Shown in pieces: positions 9,532 through 54,476 of a DNA stretch of 64,000 nt. The first letter of the stretch is position 1. Each line of letters begins with the position of its first letter. Both the position numbers and the translations under genes were made by a program. The notes beneath the pieces were generated by a model, which did no database searches, had not been told where the DNA came from, and saw only the letters and a program-made list of their open reading frames with translations. The DNA is from Escherichia phage ekra: sequence record MN850644.1. The stretch is one strand, 5' to 3'.

Positions 9532-10005
9532 TATTTAAACCTCTATCTCAATTTATGAAGAGTACCAATTCTAATTTGTTGATACTCTATTGTCAAATAC
9601 TAATTACTGGAAGTTGTGCTTATCTTTAGAAGCTGCTTTACGTGCAGTTTTTCCAGTTCTTACACGTTTTTCTTCATAGTATTTTGCTGGTTTTCCAGCA
9701 GTGGCTTTTAAGGAATCCCCAAAAACTTTTTCAAATGCTTTAGAGTGTTTCATGATATTCTCCGATATACTTGATATTCAAACACATTTTCTTTAATTAT
9801 AAACAGCCAACTAATATTATGCTGAGGCAGTGCAATGATGACTGTAATCGTGCTTTGGCAGAAATCTTCTTTTATCTCAACTCCCCCATTGCATTTCATG
9901 AGGAGCATTCTATAGAACCTATCAACCTTTGTCAAACACTCTTCCTGAAATTTATTTAAACTCTTTTCTTCAAAGAAGGGTATGAACCCCTCTCTTTTAT
10001 AACTA

Positions 10006-11997
10006 TCACTCAGTTTCGAACGGGCAGTCATCTGCATCCTCACTTAATACAGGTGGAATCGTTGAACTTTGACGCTGTTCTTCAGTATAGACTTCACCAG
10101 TCTCACGGTCAAACACTTCATCCTCATAATGAGGTAAAGAGTCATCATAATGGTCTTCAGCTTCACCAATACCAAACTGCTGGCGAATATTTTCTGCTGC
10201 ACCATCAATATCAACACCACATCCAGAAGCTTTGATAAGACGTCCTGTATCTGGATTGTACCAAGTATGACCAGCAATACCTGTTGACTTACCATGACGA
10301 CGACACTTAGTTAACTTGATTTTTGTCAAGTTTTTCTTAACAGGGTCTGGGTCAACCTTGTTACGCATTAACAGGATGTTATTCATAGAAATCTGGAAAT
10401 ACGCACCAGAACCTTTGATATCCTCTTCAGAGATGTCTCCACCTTCAGAGTTGGCTTTCTGACCACCTGCACTCTTACGAACGTGACATACGTTTACCTG
10501 TGCATACTGGTAGCGTTTGCAACGACGCAATAGCTCAGACAAGACTTCCTCTTCATCCGTATCAGAACGTGACAGAGCCAACGTAATAGGGTCAAGAATA
10601 ATAATCTTACAGTCTAAACTGTTAACAAGGTAGTCAACAAACTCTAGCAGGTTATCTTGGTCAATTGCCCCTTGATGGTCAACGATATGGATACGACGAC
10701 CTTTAGACAGTTCTGCGTGTGCTCCTTTTAATTCATCCCAATCCCGTTCATCATAAGGAATCTCAGAAATCTGTTTGCTCAGGTGGATTGCACAGAGCAT
10801 CTCCATCAACTCTTCATAGGTATCTTCTACAGGAATTACACCGATATTATAGTCAGTTTCTTTCCAAGCGGAATAAATCATCTCACGAGTGTAAGCTGAC
10901 TTACCTACTGAGGATGGTGCTGCCAGAGTTGTAATCTCACCTAAACCATAACCACCATAAGTCAGTCTGTTCAAATCTCCGAAAGATTCTGGGAAAGGAA
11001 TCAATGGAATCTGACCACGATTCTTCATTGCCTCAAAACCATCTGCGAAGTTCTTGATACCAGCAGGACAGTAACGAGGTGCATTGTAGATACGCTGCTT
11101 AAATCCTTCCAGAACTGTATCTTTCTCTTTATAGAACTTTGTCCACCACTCGTTAAGGTCTTTTACACCTTCTGGATACTGGAATAAACGAACCTTCTCA
11201 ATAGGGAGAATACCAGCAGCCTCTTTGGTAGCTTTAGCACCTGCTTCATCGTTATCAAAGCACAAGTAAATCTCATTAAATGATGTAATGTACTGATAGT
11301 TGTCTTTGATAGACTTGATGTTTGCACCTGATGGAACAGATACGTGACAGTAATTCTTACGACGAGACTTGTCCTTAATCGCAAGAGAAGTCATATAGAT
11401 TGCTGTTGCACATTCCATCTCACCTTCCCAGATGAATAGACGGTTACCACCTTCTGGAGCAATCCATGAACCAAACATTGCCAGTTCACCTTTAATGTCT
11501 CCAACACCACCTGAAAAGTCTTTTAGTTTACCTCGTAGGTGTTCTTTTGGATGGTCTTCTGGGTAACGGTGACGAACACGGTAGCCAACATGTTCTAGCT
11601 TACCATCTTCATTACGTTTGTAAGTTGGATAGAAGTGCGCATCAATTTCACCGTCACTGTCAATGTCAATCTTAATACCCAAACGCTCAAGAACTTTTGC
11701 AGGAATCTTCCTGTCTTTCAAGTCCATTGCTTCTAGGTTTTCTTTTACATCGTCTAAATCCATTCCACGGAAAGTACGGTTTTTATTGTCTGAACCAGTA
11801 GAATAAGTGCTCACGATTTGTCCTTTATCAAAATCCCACTCTGGGAAACCTTTGTTACAACTAAAGCAAGTCATCGAATAAGAATCATCGTCATGATGAT
11901 AGATTGAACCAGCATCTGATGAACCACAACGTGGACATGCACAATGACCAATAAACTGACCAGCCTCTTTCAATTTACGACCTTTAGACATTAGCAC
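10006..11997 (-). CDS. bifunctional DNA primase-helicase (T7 gp4-like)
   Basis: 663-aa ORF; N-terminal Cys4 zinc ribbon (CACPRCGSSD...CFSC), central TOPRIM-like region, C-terminal DnaB-like helicase with Walker A GLGEITTLAAPSSVGKS and Walker B IIILD. Confidence 0.85.
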   Translation of the reverse strand: MLMSKGRKLKEAGQFIGHCACPRCGSSDAGSIYHHDDDSYSMTCFSCNKGFPEWDFDKGQIVSTYSTGSDNKNRTFRGMDLDDVKENLEAMDLKDRKIPAKVLERLGIKIDIDSDGEIDAHFYPTYKRNEDGKLEHVGYRVRHRYPEDHPKEHLRGKLKDFSGGVGDIKGELAMFGSWIAPEGGNRLFIWEGEMECATAIYMTSLAIKDKSRRKNYCHVSVPSGANIKSIKDNYQYITSFNEIYLCFDNDEAGAKATKEAAGILPIEKVRLFQYPEGVKDLNEWWTKFYKEKDTVLEGFKQRIYNAPRYCPAGIKNFADGFEAMKNRGQIPLIPFPESFGDLNRLTYGGYGLGEITTLAAPSSVGKSAYTREMIYSAWKETDYNIGVIPVEDTYEELMEMLCAIHLSKQISEIPYDERDWDELKGAHAELSKGRRIHIVDHQGAIDQDNLLEFVDYLVNSLDCKIIILDPITLALSRSDTDEEEVLSELLRRCKRYQYAQVNVCHVRKSAGGQKANSEGGDISEEDIKGSGAYFQISMNNILLMRNKVDPDPVKKNLTKIKLTKCRRHGKSTGIAGHTWYNPDTGRLIKASGCGVDIDGAAENIRQQFGIGEAEDHYDDSLPHYEDEVFDRETGEVYTEEQRQSSTIPPVLSEDADDCPFETE

Positions 11998-49212: not shown

Positions 49213-49413
49213 TTATTCAGAGTCTGTCGCAGTCTCTTCTTTCTTAACTTCGAACTTTGCATCAACAGCATCAAGAAGTGCATCCATAGATGCTTCTTTA
49301 ATATCTATACCTGTTGCTACAGATAATCTATCTGCAATTGCCATGATAGTATTCTGCATAAACTCTAGCTTCTTATTAGCTTCATAAAGTTCTTTATAAA
49401 CGGTCTCACTCAT
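49213..49413 (-). CDS. small hypothetical protein upstream of terminase
   Basis: 66-aa ORF, acidic. Confidence 0.3.
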   Translation of the reverse strand: MSETVYKELYEANKKLEFMQNTIMAIADRLSVATGIDIKEASMDALLDAVDAKFEVKKEETATDSE

Positions 49414-49635
49414 TATGTTTTCTCCAAATAATTAATCATGTTTCTCCTTAAAAAAGACGGCACAGAGACCGTCAAGGAGAAACCACAATGTACGTCAGAG
49501 ACATACTGTATAAGTCTTCCTATAAAGTATAACTCTGTAAAAAAGCCCTGTCTAAAAATACTCTTCGGTAGCGAAAGGAAGAATACTTATAGCAGGGCAT
49601 TATTATTATTTTAATTGAGAGAGAGTAAAATAACT

Positions 49636-49711
49636 TGGAGAATCCGAAGGGACTCGAACCCTTATAAACCTGTTTTGCAGACAGGTACATATCCATTTCT
49701 GTCACGGATTC
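49636..49711 (-). tRNA. tRNA-Cys (anticodon GCA)
   Basis: Hand-folded cloverleaf on minus strand; T-arm GACTCGAACCC-type; anticodon stem CCTGT/ACAGG, loop CTGCAAA; CCA encoded; ends +/-3 nt. Confidence 0.65.
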
Positions 49712-49715
49712 AAAT

Positions 49716-49808
49716 TGGAGGAAGATACCAGACTTGAACTGGTACACCGATTTCTCAGCTACTGGCAGTTTAGCAAACTGCTCCCTTACCTTTTAGGGTT
49801 AATCTTCC
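49716..49808 (-). tRNA. tRNA-Ser (anticodon GCT), long variable arm
   Basis: 93-nt element, acceptor GGAAGAT/ATCTTCC, anticodon loop TTGCTAA; hand-folded. Confidence 0.6.
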
Positions 49809-49809
49809 A

Positions 49810-50544
49810 TTATTTCTGTAATGCGCTCTTCATTTCTGGTGTTGCAATAGTGTCAATTACACCAGTTTTACAAGCATCGTCAAACCAGTCTGGTAAGATA
49901 CCTGCTAAGAACCCATTGATATTCGTTTTAAGGTACTCTGCAATAAGGGCAGCTTCTTCTTCAATCATCTGCACAACTTCATCTGCATAGGCGGTAATCT
50001 TTGAGATACCCTCATTAATCTTAATAACAGCTTGGTTAGCTAAATCAGAAACAGTATCAAGACCCTTATCAATAGCATCTTGTAAGTCACTTAACACATC
50101 GTTAACACTATCTAGTGTACTGTTAATCGTATCAATAGCTTTTTGACCATACTCTGTAGCAACACCCATAATACCACTGAATGGTGTACAACCGACTTGT
50201 TCTCCTGCTGCACCCATAACATTGGAGTATCCCTTTGCTACCTGCATACGTGATGAAAACTCATCAATAGACTTTTGACCATAGTCTGTTAGGGTCTTAG
50301 TAGTTGCTGTAGTGCTTGTCAGGCTTGTTGTAAAGCTGTTTAGAAGGACTGTTGTAAGTCCAGCAGCAACAAGCTTCTCCTCCATTGTAGGGTCTGTTAC
50401 AGAGCTAATAGAGCTTACAAGTGATGTAGAGGCAGCTACGGTTCCACCGAGAACTGCTGCACCAGTAATAAGTGGGTTAGAAAACCCTTTACCAGTTTTT
50501 AAGAGATTAAAAATCTCCTTACCTTGTTCTGTCATCTCTTTCAT
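49810..50544 (-). CDS. hypothetical protein embedded in tRNA array
   Basis: ORF 49810..50607 trimmed to ATG 50544 (MKEMTEQGKE, AAAGG RBS) so as not to overlap tRNA-Phe; Ser/Thr/Gly-rich N-terminal half, acidic helical C-terminal half. Confidence 0.4.
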   Translation of the reverse strand: MKEMTEQGKEIFNLLKTGKGFSNPLITGAAVLGGTVAASTSLVSSISSVTDPTMEEKLVAAGLTTVLLNSFTTSLTSTTATTKTLTDYGQKSIDEFSSRMQVAKGYSNVMGAAGEQVGCTPFSGIMGVATEYGQKAIDTINSTLDSVNDVLSDLQDAIDKGLDTVSDLANQAVIKINEGISKITAYADEVVQMIEEEAALIAEYLKTNINGFLAGILPDWFDDACKTGVIDTIATPEMKSALQK

Positions 50545-50560
50545 TAAGCACCTTTGAAAT

Positions 50561-50636
50561 TGGTAGTCCAGTGGGATTTGAACCCTCTTCTCATGTTTTT
50601 CAGACACGCGCTTTAACCATATAAGCTACTTGGACT
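50561..50636 (-). tRNA. tRNA-Phe (anticodon GAA)
   Basis: T-arm GGGATTTGAACCC; anticodon loop CTGAAAA; hand-folded. Confidence 0.6.
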
Positions 50637-50642
50637 ATAAAT

Positions 50643-50718
50643 TGGGGTGACCTACGGGATTTGAACCCGTATAGACCATGTTCACAGCATGGGTCATTAC
50701 CGTTTATGATAAGGCCAC
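50643..50718 (-). tRNA. tRNA-His (anticodon GTG)
   Basis: T-arm ACGGG-ATTTGAA-CCCGT; anticodon stem CATG/CATG, loop CTGTGAA; C73 discriminator. Confidence 0.6.
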
Positions 50719-50749
50719 ATTTAAGGACTCTCGTAAGAATCCTTAGAAG

Positions 50750-50825
50750 TGGCAGCGGCATAAGGATTTGAACCTTAATAGGACAGCTTCAGAGACTGCT
50801 GCATTGCCAGTTATGCTATACCGCT
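50750..50825 (-). tRNA. tRNA-Gln (anticodon CTG), tentative anticodon
   Basis: T-arm TAAGG-ATTTGAA-CCTTA clear; anticodon loop CTCTGAA with weak stem. Confidence 0.45.
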
Positions 50826-50830
50826 AAATT

Positions 50831-50909
50831 TGGTACTCCATATCGGATTCGAACCGATACATAACACAGATTTTAAGTCTGGCCTCTCTGCCAATTGGAG
50901 TAATGGAGC
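50831..50909 (-). tRNA. tRNA with Leu anticodon TAA; short variable region (unusual for Leu)
   Basis: T-arm ATCGG-ATTCGAA-CCGAT; loop CTTAAAA; D-loop AATTGGCAGAG (Leu-like); A73; only ~6 nt between anticodon and T stems. Confidence 0.45.
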
Positions 50910-50911
50910 AT

Positions 50912-50987
50912 TGGCGGGGGATGTTGGAATTGAACCAACTTCTTCGATTTCAAAGACCGAGGTTTTAACCTTGTAAACTAATCCCCT
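50912..50987 (-). tRNA. tRNA-Gln (anticodon TTG)
   Basis: T-arm GTTGG-AATTGAA-CCAAC; anticodon loop CTTTGAA; D-arm GTTT/AAAC. Confidence 0.5.
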
Positions 50988-50995
50988 TTAAATCT

Positions 50996-51553
50996 TTACT
51001 TTCTCAGTGGATGAATAAAGAATGCCAACATAACTCTTTCCCTTGAGAATGCTCTTTCTTCTGGGACAACACTTTTTAGTTTCCATCCAACATAAATTCT
51101 CCAGTAAAACTGTTTACCAAAGACTTTAATTGACGGAATAAAAGCGAATAATCCCCAAGCATTACTGTTCCACATTAGGAGATAACCTGTCTGATTATCT
51201 TCAGGGTCAGAACTTACGTTGATATTACCTTTCCACTTAGTAACATCTTTTACATCTCTTCCTAATACATGGTAAGAGAAGTTATAAGCTTTGTTTCTCC
51301 AGAGCCATCCGACTCTCTGCATGTAGACACCCAGCTTACCAATCTTTCTAATCTTAGCCCATCTTTTAACGTGACCTTCATCACCATCAATCGGATTGTC
51401 ATAGGTCTCCATCCATCTGAATCCAAAAGGTAGATGTCCTTTCTTCTCACTGTAGAATGGAACTACGAAAGGTGCTAAGATGACTGCTAGGGTTGCTGCA
51501 AATGGTTCTAGTAAAGCTAGGAAAATCCATGAAGCATACTTCAAATATCTCAT
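50996..51553 (-). CDS. hypothetical membrane protein embedded in tRNA array
   Basis: 185-aa ORF with AAGAGG RBS; N-terminal hydrophobic helix ASWIFLALLEPFAATLAVILAPFVVPF; Trp-rich. Confidence 0.45.
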   Translation of the reverse strand: MRYLKYASWIFLALLEPFAATLAVILAPFVVPFYSEKKGHLPFGFRWMETYDNPIDGDEGHVKRWAKIRKIGKLGVYMQRVGWLWRNKAYNFSYHVLGRDVKDVTKWKGNINVSSDPEDNQTGYLLMWNSNAWGLFAFIPSIKVFGKQFYWRIYVGWKLKSVVPEERAFSRERVMLAFFIHPLRK

Positions 51554-51572
51554 CTAAATAGCCTCTTAAAAT

Positions 51573-51650
51573 TGGTGTTCCAAGACGGATTCGAACCGTC
51601 ACTAATACAAGGTTTGAGCTTGCATCCTCTGCCAATTGGGATACTGGAAC
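51573..51650 (-). tRNA. tRNA with Leu anticodon CAA; short variable region
   Basis: T-arm GACGG-ATTCGAA-CCGTC; loop CTCAAAC; D-loop CCAATTGGCAGAGGA-type as in 50831..50909; A73. Confidence 0.45.
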
Positions 51651-51651
51651 A

Positions 51652-51726
51652 TGGTACTCACTAAAGGACTTGAACCTTTTTCTTCATCTTGTAAGGGTGA
51701 TGTTTTACCATATAAACTAAGCGAGT
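51652..51726 (-). tRNA. tRNA-Val (anticodon TAC)
   Basis: T-arm AAAGG-ACTTGAA-CCTTT; anticodon stem TCATC/GGTGA, loop CTTACAA. Confidence 0.6.
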
Positions 51727-51821
51727 GTGAAAGAGGTCTGAAGTTGTGCCGCTAACTCAACTCCGTGGAATTTGTTACGGTCTTCAGTTGACACCAGCGG
51801 TCTTTCACTTGACCTCTGAAT

Positions 51822-51898
51822 TGGTGCTGCTCACAGGACTCGAACCTGCATTTCCATCCTTACAAGGGATGTGTAATAGCCAATTATACGAAAGCAGC
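51822..51898 (-). tRNA. tRNA-Thr (anticodon TGT)
   Basis: Anticodon stem CATCC/GGATG perfect, loop CTTGTAA; T-arm ACTCGAA type. Confidence 0.6.
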
Positions 51899-51904
51899 AT
51901 TGTT

Positions 51905-51979
51905 TGGAGCATCCAGAGGGAATCGAACCCTCAACCTCAGTTTGGAAGACTGTAATTTTCCCGTTTAAACTATGGATGC
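51905..51979 (-). tRNA. tRNA-Gly (anticodon TCC)
   Basis: Acceptor GCATCCA/TGGATGC perfect; T-arm GAGGG-AATCGAA-CCCTC; loop CTTCCAA. Confidence 0.65.
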
Positions 51980-51985
51980 ACTAAT

Positions 51986-52062
51986 TGGTGGAGAAGCAGG
52001 GAATTGAACCCTGTACTTAAGTTTGCAAAACTTATGTTTTAACCATGTAAACTACATCCCCA
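51986..52062 (-). tRNA. tRNA-Ala (anticodon TGC)
   Basis: Anticodon stem TAAGT/ACTTA perfect, loop TTTGCAA; acceptor contains G3-U70 pair characteristic of tRNA-Ala. Confidence 0.6.
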
Positions 52063-52067
52063 ATGTT

Positions 52068-52143
52068 TGGTACAGGTGGAGGGAATTGAACCCATCGTCT
52101 TACTGATTAAGAGTCAGTCGCATAACCATTTTGCTACACCTGC
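52068..52143 (-). tRNA. tRNA-Lys (anticodon CTT)
   Basis: Anticodon stem ACTGA/TCAGT perfect, loop CTCTTAA; T-loop AATTGAA. Confidence 0.55.
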
Positions 52144-52150
52144 ATTAATT

Positions 52151-52228
52151 TGGTAGGAGACAAGGGATTCGAACCCTCAAACACCAACTTCTAAGGATGG
52201 TAGGTTTACCAATTACCGTCAATCTCCC
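52151..52228 (-). tRNA. tRNA with Leu anticodon TAG; short variable region
   Basis: T-arm AAGGG-ATTCGAA-CCCTC; loop CTTAGAA; D-loop AATTGGTAA (Leu-like); A73. Confidence 0.45.
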
Positions 52229-52483
52229 ATTAAATCTTTTTAGAGAACTTCTAAGAACCTAAGCAACAAGGTTCCACAACAAGCTGTAATAACCTTAGAA
52301 GCCCTCTAAAAAGACCTAAAAAGGTCTTTGCATAGTCTTGTTTAATCCGGTGACTAGAACCTTTGGAGAGCTTGATATTATCTCTTCTCCATGACACCTA
52401 CTAGGTGTTTTATCAGTGTGTACGACAATACACGAGGGATACCAAAGCAACATCCGAATGAAGCTTGGCTTTAAATCTTATTA

Positions 52484-52573
52484 GGCGGTAAGTAAAGGAG
52501 TCGAACCCTCACCGTATCTCTACAGTGGCAACTGTTTTCAAGACAGTTTGGCTACCATTAGCCGCTACCTACC
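52484..52573 (-). tRNA. tRNA-Ser (anticodon TGA), long variable arm
   Basis: Anticodon stem ACTGT/ACAGT perfect, loop CTTGAAA; ~21-nt variable arm; 3-bp D stem; 3' CCA not encoded. Confidence 0.55.
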
Positions 52574-52586
52574 CCTAATAAGACTT

Positions 52587-52669
52587 TGGCATGGGACGGA
52601 GGAGTTGAACCCCTTTGAAACGGTTTTGGAGGCCGTTGCTCATGCCTTAGAGTCTTAACATCGTCCCAC
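52587..52669 (-). tRNA. tRNA-Trp (anticodon CCA), boundaries uncertain
   Basis: Anticodon stem ACGGT/GCCGT, loop CTCCAAA; T-loop AGTTGAA; element ~7 nt longer than canonical, D region ambiguous. Confidence 0.4.
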
Positions 52670-52811
52670 ACTATAATTCGAAGCTTACCGTATTTTCGCA
52701 ACACTGTAAAGCCCCTTCTCAGATTATTTACATGTTCTGGAAAACATGAGATACAGACCACCTCCTTACACGGAGACCCGATAAGGTCGTCTAAGCAATC
52801 TGCTAACTATT

Positions 52812-52888
52812 TGGCACACCCTACAGGATTCGAACCTGTAACTAACGATTTAGAAGACCGTTGCTCTATCCAATTGAACTAAGGGTGC
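52812..52888 (-). tRNA. tRNA-Arg (anticodon TCT)
   Basis: T-arm ACAGG-ATTCGAA-CCTGT; loop CTTCTAA. Confidence 0.6.
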
Positions 52889-53135
52889 ATTAATCTTTAA
52901 AGACTCTCTTAGAAAGCCCTTAAAGATGCCCACCTTATTAATCATACCGTGGGCGAGTACGCCAAATTCTTTGATGAGGGATTGGAAGACCTCACTGGTG
53001 TTTAGCCTATCAAGCTACTGCCAGAAAAACATTGTCGTTTGCATTTATTTTAAATTTGCAAAATAGACGCTACGCAACGAAAACTAAGGTTACTATAAAG
53101 TGGTCACATGTTAATGTCAACAACTTTATTGAAAT

Positions 53136-53211
53136 TGGTACTGGTAGGTGGAATCGAACCACCGATGTTCCCTTATCAGGGGAGTGTTATAACCTTCTTA
53201 ACTATACCAGC
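53136..53211 (-). tRNA. tRNA-Ile (anticodon GAT)
   Basis: T-arm GGTGG-AATCGAA-CCACC perfect; anticodon loop CTGATAA. Confidence 0.6.
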
Positions 53212-53213
53212 TT

Positions 53214-53290
53214 GGAGGTTCAGATGGGAATCGAACCCACATTCATAGGGCTTATGAGACCCCTGCATTACCTTATCTGCGACTGAACCA
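53214..53290 (-). tRNA. tRNA-Met (anticodon CAT; initiator, elongator or Ile-lysidine type not resolved)
   Basis: Acceptor GGTTCAG/CTGAACC perfect; anticodon loop CTCATAA with three consecutive G-C pairs in anticodon stem. Confidence 0.55.
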
Positions 53291-53293
53291 TAT

Positions 53294-53369
53294 TGGTAGA
53301 AGTGGAGGGATTCGAACCCATCGCCTGTCAGATTAAAAGTCTGCCGCATCACCATTCTGCTACACTTCC
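53294..53369 (-). tRNA. tRNA-Lys (anticodon TTT)
   Basis: T-arm GGAGGGATTCGAACCC; anticodon loop CTTTTAA. Confidence 0.6.
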
Positions 53370-53827
53370 ATTAAATTATCTTTGTAGATAAGCTACCCAG
53401 ACTTGCTTAAGGTCTGTAGCGATGTGCTTTGTTGGGTTTAAATCTAGAATTTACCCTTTCACCCTTTGTGGTCGCATACTCACAGGTAAGCTTAATAACT
53501 TATCTACAAAGATAATTACCAGACCGTTGTTTATCATCTTAAGTGCTACCATTACACCAACTCGACATCTGCCGAGTGAAGGAATCGAACCTTCGCCTTT
53601 TCTTTACCGGAGAAATAGATTGTTTAAGTTTTGCTGTAAACGGTCTTCTGTAAATTTGTTGAGCCAGACCAAGTTTTAAATTTTTTCAAAATTAAATTGG
53701 CTTGAAAATATCATACGTACTTGCTGAATTTGGTCTTCTGCTCCTTTAAAGAATACTCGTAAGAACTCTTTAAGGGAGGGGCTAAATAGCCCTCTCAAAA
53801 CATCATCTTGAAATACTTATTATAATT

Positions 53828-53905
53828 TGGCGGTTACGAAGGGATTTGAACCCTCATCATCTCCCGTGACAGGGGAGTATTTTAACCAGATTAAACTACA
53901 TAACC
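53828..53905 (-). tRNA. tRNA-Asp (anticodon GTC)
   Basis: Anticodon stem CTCCC/GGGAG perfect, loop CTGTCAC; T-arm AAGGG-ATTTGAA-CCCTC. Confidence 0.65.
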
Positions 53906-53911
53906 TTTATT

Positions 53912-53999
53912 TGGTGTGCCGTGTAGGAGTCGAACCTACCGAGTCTCAATGACAAGGGATTTACAGTCCCCACCGCTACCATCTACGGGATAACGACAC
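53912..53999 (-). tRNA. tRNA-Tyr (anticodon GTA), long variable arm
   Basis: 88-nt element; T-arm GTAGG-AGTCGAA-CCTAC; loop CTGTAAA; ~15-nt variable arm. Confidence 0.55.
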
Positions 54000-54070
54000 A
54001 TTTTATTATTCTATTCAGGCTAAGGACTTGCACCTTACAAATCGGTGAGCAATCGCTTCTCTCCTAAATT

Positions 54071-54147
54071 TGGCGGTTAGTCAGGGATTCGAACCCTGTG
54101 CCATTCGCTTAACAGGCGACCGCACATACCTTATGTGCTTCCTAACC
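54071..54147 (-). tRNA. tRNA-Asn (anticodon GTT)
   Basis: T-arm CAGGG-ATTCGAA-CCCTG; anticodon loop CTGTTAA; D stem GCAC/GTGC. Confidence 0.6.
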
Positions 54148-54225
54148 TTAATACATTGCCAGACCGTGTTTTTTTCTTTTATCCGCAAAAAGTAGTTTGT
54201 TGCTGCATACGGTCTTCTGCAAAAT

Positions 54226-54302
54226 TGGAGGCGGGTGCAGGAGTCGAACCTACCGATACCATGCTAATGAGACATGTGAGACGCCCTTTCTCTATACCCG
54301 CA
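54226..54302 (-). tRNA. tRNA-Met, second CAT-anticodon gene
   Basis: T-loop AGTCGAA; anticodon stem CATG/CATG, loop CTCATTA. Confidence 0.5.
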
Positions 54303-54391
54303 ATTCTTAATGACCAGACCAAATATCTTCTTTGTCCGATTTATCTTCAGATGAATAAGATTAAGTTTGCTGCAATTGGTCTTCTGTCAAA

Positions 54392-54469
54392 ACTGGCGTT
54401 CCAGAAGGGATTTGAACCCTCAAATATCCACTTTGAAAGAGTGGTGACTTTACCGTTTTGTCTACTGGA
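54392..54469 (-). tRNA. tRNA-Glu (anticodon TTC)
   Basis: Acceptor GTTCCAG/CTGGAAC perfect; anticodon stem CCACT/AGTGG perfect, loop CTTTCAA. Confidence 0.65.
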
Positions 54470-54476
54470 ACATTAA

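Follow-up and report, generated by a model that had tools for sequence, protein, structure and literature searches.

We analysed a stretch of 64,000 nucleotides (nt) from Escherichia phage ekra (MN850644.1), referred to here as the window, in which two protein-coding open reading frames (ORFs), termed ORF A and ORF B, are lodged inside a large cluster of transfer RNA (tRNA) genes. The window is a Felixounavirus genome. The 2.1-kb target region matched 291 phage records in a megablast search, 215 of which span it almost fully at 95-99% identity; all are from Felix O1-like myoviruses (Felixounavirus and relatives), and Felix O1 itself is 97.8% identical.

Two conserved genes within the tRNA array

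ARAGORN identified 25 co-oriented tRNA genes in the array, most of them confirmed by Rfam (Table 1), and a Rfam scan of the array region revealed no RNA family besides tRNA. Terminase and portal genes lie just downstream on the same strand. An earlier interpretation made without database searches (the sequence-only reading) had placed two protein genes, co-oriented with the tRNAs, between tRNA-Ser and tRNA-Phe and between tRNA-Gln and a Leu-anticodon tRNA; the ARAGORN predictions, the ORF coordinates and the Pfam and PHROG matches bear out this arrangement. The junctions are tight. A gap of 16 nt separates tRNA-Phe from the start of ORF A, whose stop codon is followed after 1 nt by tRNA-Ser(gct), and ORF B begins 19 nt after tRNA-Leu(caa) and ends 8 nt before tRNA-Gln(ttg).

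ORF A matches the Pfam family DUF7217 (PF23854) over residues 8-243 with 294.4 bits (cut-off 29) and phrog_2114 at 1.5e-110. ORF B matches DUF7338 (PF24027) over residues 1-184 with 206.4 bits (cut-off 27) and phrog_2143 at 8e-81. The two proteins are 96-98% identical to Felix O1 ORF49 and ORF48, and homologues of both in other phage genera diverge to 25-45% identity. On this comparative evidence, both are real genes rather than chance ORFs. A longer version of ORF A in the program-made ORF list, starting from a GTG at 50607 inside tRNA-Phe, was rejected because all homologues begin at the ATG.

Orthologues of both ORFs are known from more than 200 sequenced Felixounavirus genomes, at the same positions between the same tRNA classes, and both genes have been documented in annotated genomes since the Felix O1 genome was published. 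Across hundreds of genomes the records label them hypothetical, 'membrane protein' or 'holin'. The statement of the sequence-only reading that they have no recognisable function is correct, but both belong to named Pfam and PHROG families, albeit of unknown function. A literature search returned no paper mentioning DUF7217 or DUF7338, and the wV8 proteome paper is silent on both proteins.

Protein ORFs inside phage tRNA clusters are familiar, and as such the feature is an ordinary one; T4 segB is another protein gene lodged in a phage tRNA cluster. The array of Felix O1 holds three HNH homing-endonuclease genes (ORF44/45/47), which likewise interleave with co-oriented tRNAs in a plastic region, and an extra tRNA-Arg(acg), all absent from the window. 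Directly upstream of ORF B, Felix O1 has tRNA-Arg(acg) and the window tRNA-Leu(caa). Neither ORF A nor ORF B contains an HNH, GIY-YIG, LAGLIDADG or NUMOD domain in Pfam or PHROGs, and they are thus not free-standing homing endonucleases.

Table 1. Positions of the two ORFs, the flanking tRNAs, putative expression signals and neighbouring genes in the window.
Feature	Position	Strand	Basis or remark
ORF A, 244 amino acids (aa), 25.7 kDa, isoelectric point 4.3	49810..50544	-	Felix O1 ORF49 (NP_944879), Pfam DUF7217, phrog_2114
ORF B, 185 aa, 21.9 kDa, isoelectric point 9.9	50996..51553	-	Felix O1 ORF48 (NP_944875), Pfam DUF7338, phrog_2143
Shine-Dalgarno-like AAGGTG	50549..50554	-	4 nt before ORF A ATG
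Shine-Dalgarno-like AAGAGG	51562..51567	-	8 nt before ORF B ATG, 5 nt past the end of tRNA-Leu(caa)
tRNA array, 25 co-oriented genes	49636..54555	-	ARAGORN, most confirmed by Rfam
tRNA-Ser(gct)	49716..49808	-	ARAGORN, Rfam; downstream of ORF A
tRNA-Phe(gaa)	50561..50636	-	ARAGORN, Rfam; upstream of ORF A
tRNA-Gln(ttg)	50912..50987	-	ARAGORN, Rfam; downstream of ORF B
tRNA-Leu(caa)	51573..51650	-	ARAGORN, Rfam; next gene upstream of ORF B as transcribed
Two sigma70-like promoter matches, TTGACA-17-TATAAT-like and TTGACA-18-TAAAGT with TG	54582..54702	-	Consensus match only; upstream of first tRNA
Internal sigma70-like promoter match, TTGACA-17-TATAGT, 11/12	53092..53120	-	Consensus match only; in array spacer
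Terminator-like hairpin and T-run	49456..49473	-	Consensus match only; after last tRNA (Cys), before 66-aa ORF and large terminase
Conserved acidic 66-aa ORF (Felix O1 ORF51)	49213-49413	-	Between terminator-like hairpin and large terminase
471-aa ORF with Pfam DUF2828 and DUF7788	54721-56136	-	Directly upstream of promoter-like sites and first tRNA
T4-lysozyme-type endolysin	59099-59563	+	Opposite strand to ORF B
177-aa ORF with two C-terminal hydrophobic segments	61881-62414	+	2.3 kb beyond endolysin

The spacers between the ORFs and the tRNAs are too short for separate promoters or terminators, and we infer that ORF A and ORF B are likely co-transcribed with the tRNAs. We propose that transcription starting at the array's sigma70-type promoters would read through both ORFs, within a polycistronic tRNA-mRNA precursor ending at the hairpin that follows tRNA-Cys; this hairpin is likely the 3' end of the transcription unit. 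Each ORF would be translated from its own ribosome-binding site, and tRNA end-processing would free short mRNAs with leaders of 16-19 nt and almost no 3' tail. Cleavage by RNase P at tRNA-Ser would trim the ORF A message to 1 nt past its stop codon, so that translation would have to compete with tRNA processing. The packing of ORFs and tRNAs at distances of 1-19 nt offers a simple natural case of such competition between tRNA processing and translation of an embedded mRNA.

Data from Felix O1 are consistent with this proposal. By reverse transcription PCR (RT-PCR), ORF48 and ORF49, together with ORF45 and ORF46 of the array, reach their maximum at 5 min. Of the genes that follow, ORF51 and ORF53 are classed as late and ORF52 as middle; the data are noisy, as capsid and tail genes also fall in the 5-min class (PMC3185647). 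The internal promoter match in the array spacer is identical in sequence to P45 of the same paper (PMC3185647). A literature search for a Felixounavirus transcriptome found none. Together, the lack of room in the spacers, the promoter- and terminator-like sites and the 5-min RT-PCR class lend indirect support to the suggestion, made in the sequence-only reading, that the two genes are co-expressed with the tRNAs.

We suggest, tentatively and with confidence close to but below even, that the two ORFs are ordinary conserved genes in inter-tRNA spacers, with ORF B being a lysis or envelope accessory and ORF A a virion-associated protein. They would ride the tRNA operon as passengers and not as partners of the tRNAs.

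DUF7338 beside tRNA clusters and lysis genes

ORF B combines an N-terminal hydrophobic helix with an alpha/beta domain of ~150 aa; the helix, the abundance of tryptophan (10 residues) and the ribosome-binding site upstream of the ATG were all correctly described in the sequence-only reading. The AlphaFold model (33-sequence alignment) has a predicted local distance difference test score (pLDDT) of 93.8 and consists of a long N-terminal helix (residues 2-33) followed by short helices and a five-stranded sheet. The hydrophobic segment of ORF B (residues 9-27) has a Kyte-Doolittle value of 2.1, and such an N-terminal segment is present in 168 of 171 full-length DUF7338 members. Across the family, the N flank carries a mean charge of +2.1 and the C flank one of +0.1, and the N side is the more positive in 85% of members. 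This bias predicts an N-in/C-out topology, in which the conserved domain would be periplasmic. ORF B would then be a type-II single-pass inner-membrane protein exposing a Trp-rich domain of ~150 aa to the periplasm.

The conserved motifs of ORF B are TxDN...G[DE], WLWRN and GWK. The DUF7338 alignment contains 16 invariant positions across 32-97% identity, including TxD, the following G, WxWRN..Y and R...GWK, as well as many conserved tryptophans, and from this pattern the domain looks more like a binding or catalytic module than a holin. A profile search of 1.84 billion representatives yielded 886 DUF7338 clusters at 50% identity, nearly all of them stand-alone proteins of 160-200 aa. A scan of bacterial species-representative genomes gave only 6 loci, so DUF7338 is rare among those scanned. 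Apart from DUF7338, Pfam gave ORF B no match at E<=1. When ORF A and ORF B were searched against the PDB by sequence and by profile, the matches were coiled-coil or compositional noise only, and Foldseek searches of both models against BFVD retrieved only family members. The fold of the ORF B domain is thus a confident prediction that has no solved structural relative.

Close relatives of ORF B are mostly found near tRNAs. Among the DUF7338 homologues with at least 55% identity in IMG/VR, all but one lie 12-1100 bp from a co-oriented tRNA. The groups with this arrangement are Felixounavirus, an 84.7-kb Ounavirinae-like phage (L033), Av-05 and several Straboviridae (T4-like) genera, the last including the annotated phages JS10, RB16, Miro and STML-198. 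The neighbours of the ORF are tRNA-Asp and tRNA-Ser(tga) in L033 and tRNA-Gly and tRNA-Gln in Av-05, and RB16-type and JS10-type phages carry the tRNA-plus-DUF7338 block in different genomic neighbourhoods. In the Otagovirus phiPsa397, a DUF7338 protein of 25% identity is encoded inside a 19-tRNA array. The flanking tRNAs therefore vary from phage to phage. BLASTN alignment of window positions 51567-50990 with L033 positions 9987-10563 revealed DNA homology over ORF B, 14 nt upstream and 6 nt downstream only. We therefore rejected a transfer of ORF B together with the adjoining tRNAs, as the ORF is shared and the flanks are not; with homology limited to the ORF and different tRNAs on either side, ORF B behaves as a discrete cassette. 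A tRNA neighbourhood in another, distant lineage occurs in a prophage-like region of a Pararobbsia silviterrae scaffold (L109, 5947-8350); four tRNA genes (Trp, Glu, Met, Gly) are found there on the opposite strand, 1.1 kb from a divergent DUF7338 variant whose motif has no G[DE] portion.

Some of these loci also contain lysis genes. S16-like T4 phages carry DUF7338 between their tRNAs and the e lysozyme gene. In the S16-like phage STML-198 (L006, 2206-5971), tRNA-Met, tRNA-Gln, tRNA-Arg, two ORFs, DUF7338, three small ORFs and an e-type lysozyme gene follow one another, all co-oriented, and in Dhakavirus-type loci the e lysozyme gene is 7-9 kb downstream. tRNA genes precede e in T4 and precede the lysis genes in lambdoid Shiga toxin (Stx) phages, and part of the linkage between DUF7338 and tRNAs may thus come from the lysis neighbourhood.

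The more distant family members show a different context. At 42% identity or less, none of ~35 DUF7338 loci has a tRNA within 2.4 kb, and only three have any tRNA in the flanks fetched. Together with further loci from Logan, ENA and GTDB, they were grouped into 20 informative tRNA-free lineages. In 10 of the 20, DUF7338 lies within about three genes of an endolysin gene, co-oriented with it and usually separated by gaps of 0-10 nt (rough binomial test for the adjacency, P ~4e-5).

The lysis genes involved are diverse. DUF7338 is followed by GTA_holin_3TM and GH108 (L075); by Phage_holin_3_7 and an M23 peptidase (L062); by a transmembrane (TM) protein, Phage_holin_4_1, an endolysin, Rz/Rz1 and an integrase (L072/73); by a TM protein, a lysozyme (Phage_lysozyme) and Rz/Rz1 (L061); and by two TM ORFs, an SLT-like gene and Rz/Rz1 (L107). 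In other lineages a single small ORF intervenes, of 89 aa before a lysozyme (Phage_lysozyme; L082), of 96 aa before GH108 and, further on, Rz (L092/93), or of 114 aa before an M15 peptidase (M15_4; L104), and in L069/70 DUF7338 overlaps a lysozyme (Phage_lysozyme) with a hydrophobic N-terminus. The order in a lambdoid lineage of 49% identity (L102/103) is Q, then holin, lysozyme, i-/o-spanin, DUF7338, small terminase and large terminase, so that DUF7338 is apart from the tail fibres, which are its upstream neighbour in most other loci. The presence of six endolysin types and four holin families among the DUF7338 loci indicates that this is not one inherited cassette.

We propose that ORF B would act at the cell envelope as a lysis accessory, perhaps as an antiholin, a partner of the holin or a factor in lysis timing. 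An envelope-acting lysis accessory is its most likely role, given that in modular phage genomes the gene sits directly against the holin-endolysin-spanin cassette. Lysis genes are scattered in large virulent myoviruses, and there DUF7338 may have relocated, as a cassette of ORF size, to sites within or beside tRNA clusters. Small membrane-tethered proteins encoded in or flush with holin-endolysin cassettes include the T4 RI antiholin, P2 LysA, P1 LydB, the Mu gp25 releasin and PBSX XhlA, which modulate the holin or endolysin and do not form the lethal hole. By analogy, the role proposed for DUF7338 would resemble theirs, but the protein is larger, has a conserved globular domain and shows no detectable homology to them in Pfam or PHROGs. 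It is possible, though we regard it as rather doubtful, that DUF7338 constitutes an unrecognised and widespread class of lysis-cassette accessory, with a periplasmic domain of new fold that serves diverse holin and endolysin partners as antiholin or as timing or envelope sensor, and whose rehousing in tRNA operons gives early, tRNA-coupled expression.

DUF7217 and the virion

ORF A is acidic, with an N-terminal half rich in Ser, Thr, Gly and Ala, and is predicted to be all-helical, in agreement with the composition given in the sequence-only reading. The DUF7217 family comprises 68 clusters of ~242-246 aa and is confined to Ounavirinae (Felixounavirus and Kolesnikvirus) and Ackermannviridae-like phages. 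Residues C119 and C225 (window ~50188-50190 and 49870-49872) are invariant across Ounavirinae and Ackermannviridae, as are W220 and D223, and the two cysteines may form a disulfide or a metal site.

The position of the gene differs between phage groups. In the Kolesnikvirus phage Tian, which infects Erwinia and has a similar array of 26 tRNAs, the ORF A homologue lies after the last tRNA and is followed by a 60-aa ORF, the large terminase and the portal gene; ORF A is 'embedded' in the Felixounavirus array only because tRNA-Ser and tRNA-Cys lie downstream of it. In CBA120, May, Vi01 and Sajous1, the DUF7217 gene has the capsid region on one side and the gp3 tail-completion gene on the other, and we detected no tRNA in the scanned flanks in CBA120 and May. 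The Ackermannviridae proteins Vi01_142c, CBA120 orf171 and Sajous1 gp166 are full-length DUF7217 members of 25-28% identity with the same invariant cysteine pair and, unlike ORF A, are not encoded among tRNAs.

Evidence for the association of this family with virions comes from these relatives. Sajous1 gp166, a homologue of ORF A at E=6e-29, was represented by 8 spectra from virions purified on caesium chloride (CsCl), equal to the tail-completion protein. Vi01_142c is annotated as a 'phage associated protein', and the CBA120 paper gives the Vi01 proteome as 41 particle-associated proteins. The Kolesnikvirus and Ackermannviridae copies lie beside packaging and morphogenesis genes, and the protein has been recovered from purified virions of the latter; we regard a low-copy virion-associated protein as the most likely identity of ORF A. 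The Felix O1 paper assigned a 51-kDa virion band to gp49 and proposed it as the sheath protein (PMC3185647). We treat this gel-band claim as unreliable, as ORF49 is 25.7 kDa and absent from the shotgun list, and gp63 is 48.9 kDa; the assignment is probably a mislabel, or the band an SDS (sodium dodecyl sulfate)-resistant dimer.

Several other assignments of ORF A were considered and rejected. It is probably not a membrane protein, as its sole hydrophobic stretch is marginal and is not conserved in the Ackermannviridae homologues; the membrane-targeting role suggested for the pair in the sequence-only reading fits ORF B. Its location upstream of the large terminase in Tian might suggest a small terminase, but the Ackermannviridae copy is far from the terminase genes of its own genome. 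A match of ORF A to the C-terminal half of the 500-position profile phrog_289, labelled 'GTP-binding domain' (2e-17), was set aside as functional evidence because the label sits on a different, neighbouring gene in Klebsiella phage May and because there is neither a GTPase motif nor Pfam support. Weak matches to ZorA, RecN and JetC (NCBIfam/PADLOC) are coiled-coil noise far below the cut-offs. In the original Felix O1 record AF320576 (L105), the orthologue of window 49810-50607 (positions 1409-2206) is the gene 'red' (ORF2 of AF071201) with the product 'unknown', and UniProt O80222 is the 'Red protein'.

Weighing the roles of the two proteins

The sequence-only reading had named a tRNA-handling or anti-defence role among its examples. 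In such a role one or both proteins would partner the tRNA set in processing, modification, repair or the countering of anticodon nucleases, and placement would reflect functional coupling. DUF7338 does lie within ~1.1 kb of co-oriented tRNAs in Felixounavirus, L033, Av-05, Straboviridae (in two neighbourhoods) and phiPsa397 (at 25% identity), which is far above chance. Nevertheless, we consider such a partnership very improbable. Neither protein meaningfully matches a nucleic-acid enzyme or defence model, or has an RNA-binding, nuclease, ligase, kinase, transferase or known inhibitor domain (Pfam, PHROGs, NCBIfam and PADLOC), and the conserved domain of ORF B is predicted to face the periplasm and would thus be separated from tRNA. 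A factor of tRNA repair or anticodon-nuclease defence, such as T4 Pnk, Rnl1 or Stp, would be expected to combine an enzyme or inhibitor domain with a cytoplasmic location, and no such domain was found in either ORF. Most members of the DUF7338 family, about 35 distant loci among them, have no tRNA within 10 kb, and the identities of the adjoining tRNAs differ between phages. Synteny supports the link for ORF B, which recurs beside tRNAs in some groups, but not for ORF A, whose homologues are not tRNA-linked outside Felixounavirus. The sequence-only reading had itself held that absence of an ORF from a relative with the same array would count against its proposal, and Tian, with its comparable array, has no ORF B.

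Two further readings concern ORF B and place it, like ours, at the envelope. The genome announcement of phage Mushroom described it with the words 'class-III holin (1 TMD; N-in, C-out)', and GEC_vB_B1 and other GenBank records have taken over the label. According to this reading, ORF B is the holin of Felix O1-like phages, of class III like T4 T, with one TM domain and a large periplasmic domain. The charge bias across the family is as predicted for such a topology, and the likeness extends to the single N-terminal TM segment, the large periplasmic domain and the length of ~200 aa (predicted features in the case of ORF B), as well as to gene order, as T4 t follows the tail-fibre genes just as DUF7338 does in many phages. 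Moreover, DUF7338 abuts the endolysin in many phages, overlapping the lysozyme start in L069/70 with no holin between, and Felix O1-type phages have no established holin, nor does the endolysin gene of the window have one adjacent. However, canonical holins of four Pfam families are encoded beside DUF7338 in L062, L073, L075 and L102, and the T4-like phage JS10 encodes a bona fide t holin alongside it, so that ORF B is unlikely to be a sole holin. The globular domain, with its 16 invariant residues across 32-97% identity, is strongly conserved, unlike in typical holins, and the RT-PCR peak of the gene in Felix O1 is at 5 min (PMC3185647). An hhalign comparison of the DUF7338 profile with the T protein of JS10 gave a probability of 0.4%, ORF B has no Phage_holin_T match in Pfam, and no fold match was found between its model and T4 holin T. 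Taken together, the lack of homology to T, the coexistence with T and canonical holins and the conservation of the domain favour an accessory lysis or envelope role, and we consider the holin assignment quite improbable. The other reading, unlikely in our view but somewhat less so, is that ORF B is an envelope-acting accessory 'moron' unrelated to lysis, which would mediate superinfection exclusion or protection against lysis from without in the manner of T4 Sp/Imm or Cor/Llp and would collect at module boundaries and in hyperplastic regions. It would account for a membrane-anchored protein predicted to be periplasmic, for early expression in Felix O1 (RT-PCR, PMC3185647) and for a mobile cassette of ORF size whose flanking tRNAs vary between phages. 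The 57-62% protein identity between otherwise unrelated Ounavirinae and Straboviridae suggests horizontal transfer, the sites at tail-fibre/lysis or lysis/terminase boundaries are frequent spots for accessory genes, and the gene is dispensable in Tian. Against this, DUF7338 is usually co-oriented with the lysis genes at gaps of 0-10 nt or with overlapping stop and start codons, and is not a separate unit with its own signals. The L102 copy is away from the tail genes yet still attached to the lysis cassette, and no similarity to any known exclusion protein was found in Pfam, PHROGs or PADLOC.

The interpretation of ORF B as a lysis or envelope accessory and of ORF A as a virion protein, both passengers of the tRNA operon, has to accommodate several contrary points. 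For ORF B, the link to lysis is guilt by association: 10 of the 20 tRNA-free lineages have no lysis neighbour, and tail-fibre genes upstream are almost equally constant in most loci. The 5-min RT-PCR peak of Felix O1 ORF48 is unusual for a lysis protein (PMC3185647). In the window, the endolysin gene is ~7.5 kb from ORF B, which is thus not flush with a lysis cassette. DUF7338 adjoins tRNAs in at least six lineages, with a rough per-lineage product of ~1e-11 if the lineages are independent; this recurrent adjacency is real, chance does not fully account for it, and it is only partly explained. Possible contributors are the plasticity of the region, reliance on a promoter outside the gene and the proximity of lysis genes. 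For ORF A, the structural model is only moderately confident (pLDDT 66), the spectral count in Sajous1 is low and its authors caution about contaminants, and ORF49 is not in the whole-phage shotgun list of Felix O1; its 5-min RT-PCR class in that phage is also unusual for a virion protein (PMC3185647).

The 'holin' label carried by ORF B in many GenBank records rests on topology alone, and the comparative evidence indicates a protein that is lysis-associated and probably not a holin. This matters for the annotation of Felix O1-type phages, which serve in the biocontrol of Salmonella and E. coli and in which no gene is yet established as the holin. DUF7338 is a large and structurally novel family, for which the neighbourhood signal of lysis cassettes is the most useful new lead, together with a secondary habit of residing in tRNA clusters. 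Should DUF7338 prove to be a lysis regulator, a pathway regarded as well mapped would gain a new component. The correction of the 'holin' label, the apparent association of DUF7338 with lysis cassettes, as judged from gene order, and the probable virion association of DUF7217 are by-products of the analysis.

Other features of the window were noted in passing. The 177-aa ORF beyond the endolysin gene could be an alternative holin candidate. The array spacers at 52229-52483, 52574-52811, 52889-53135 and 53370-53827 (238-458 bp) contain no conserved ORF; the counterpart of this region in Felix O1 is where its three HNH genes and the extra tRNA-Arg(acg) lie. A Pfam search with the 66-aa ORF gave zero matches, and Felix O1-type phages have no recognised small terminase. 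The 471-aa ORF with DUF2828 and DUF7788 domains is co-oriented with the array and may be part of the same early transcription region.

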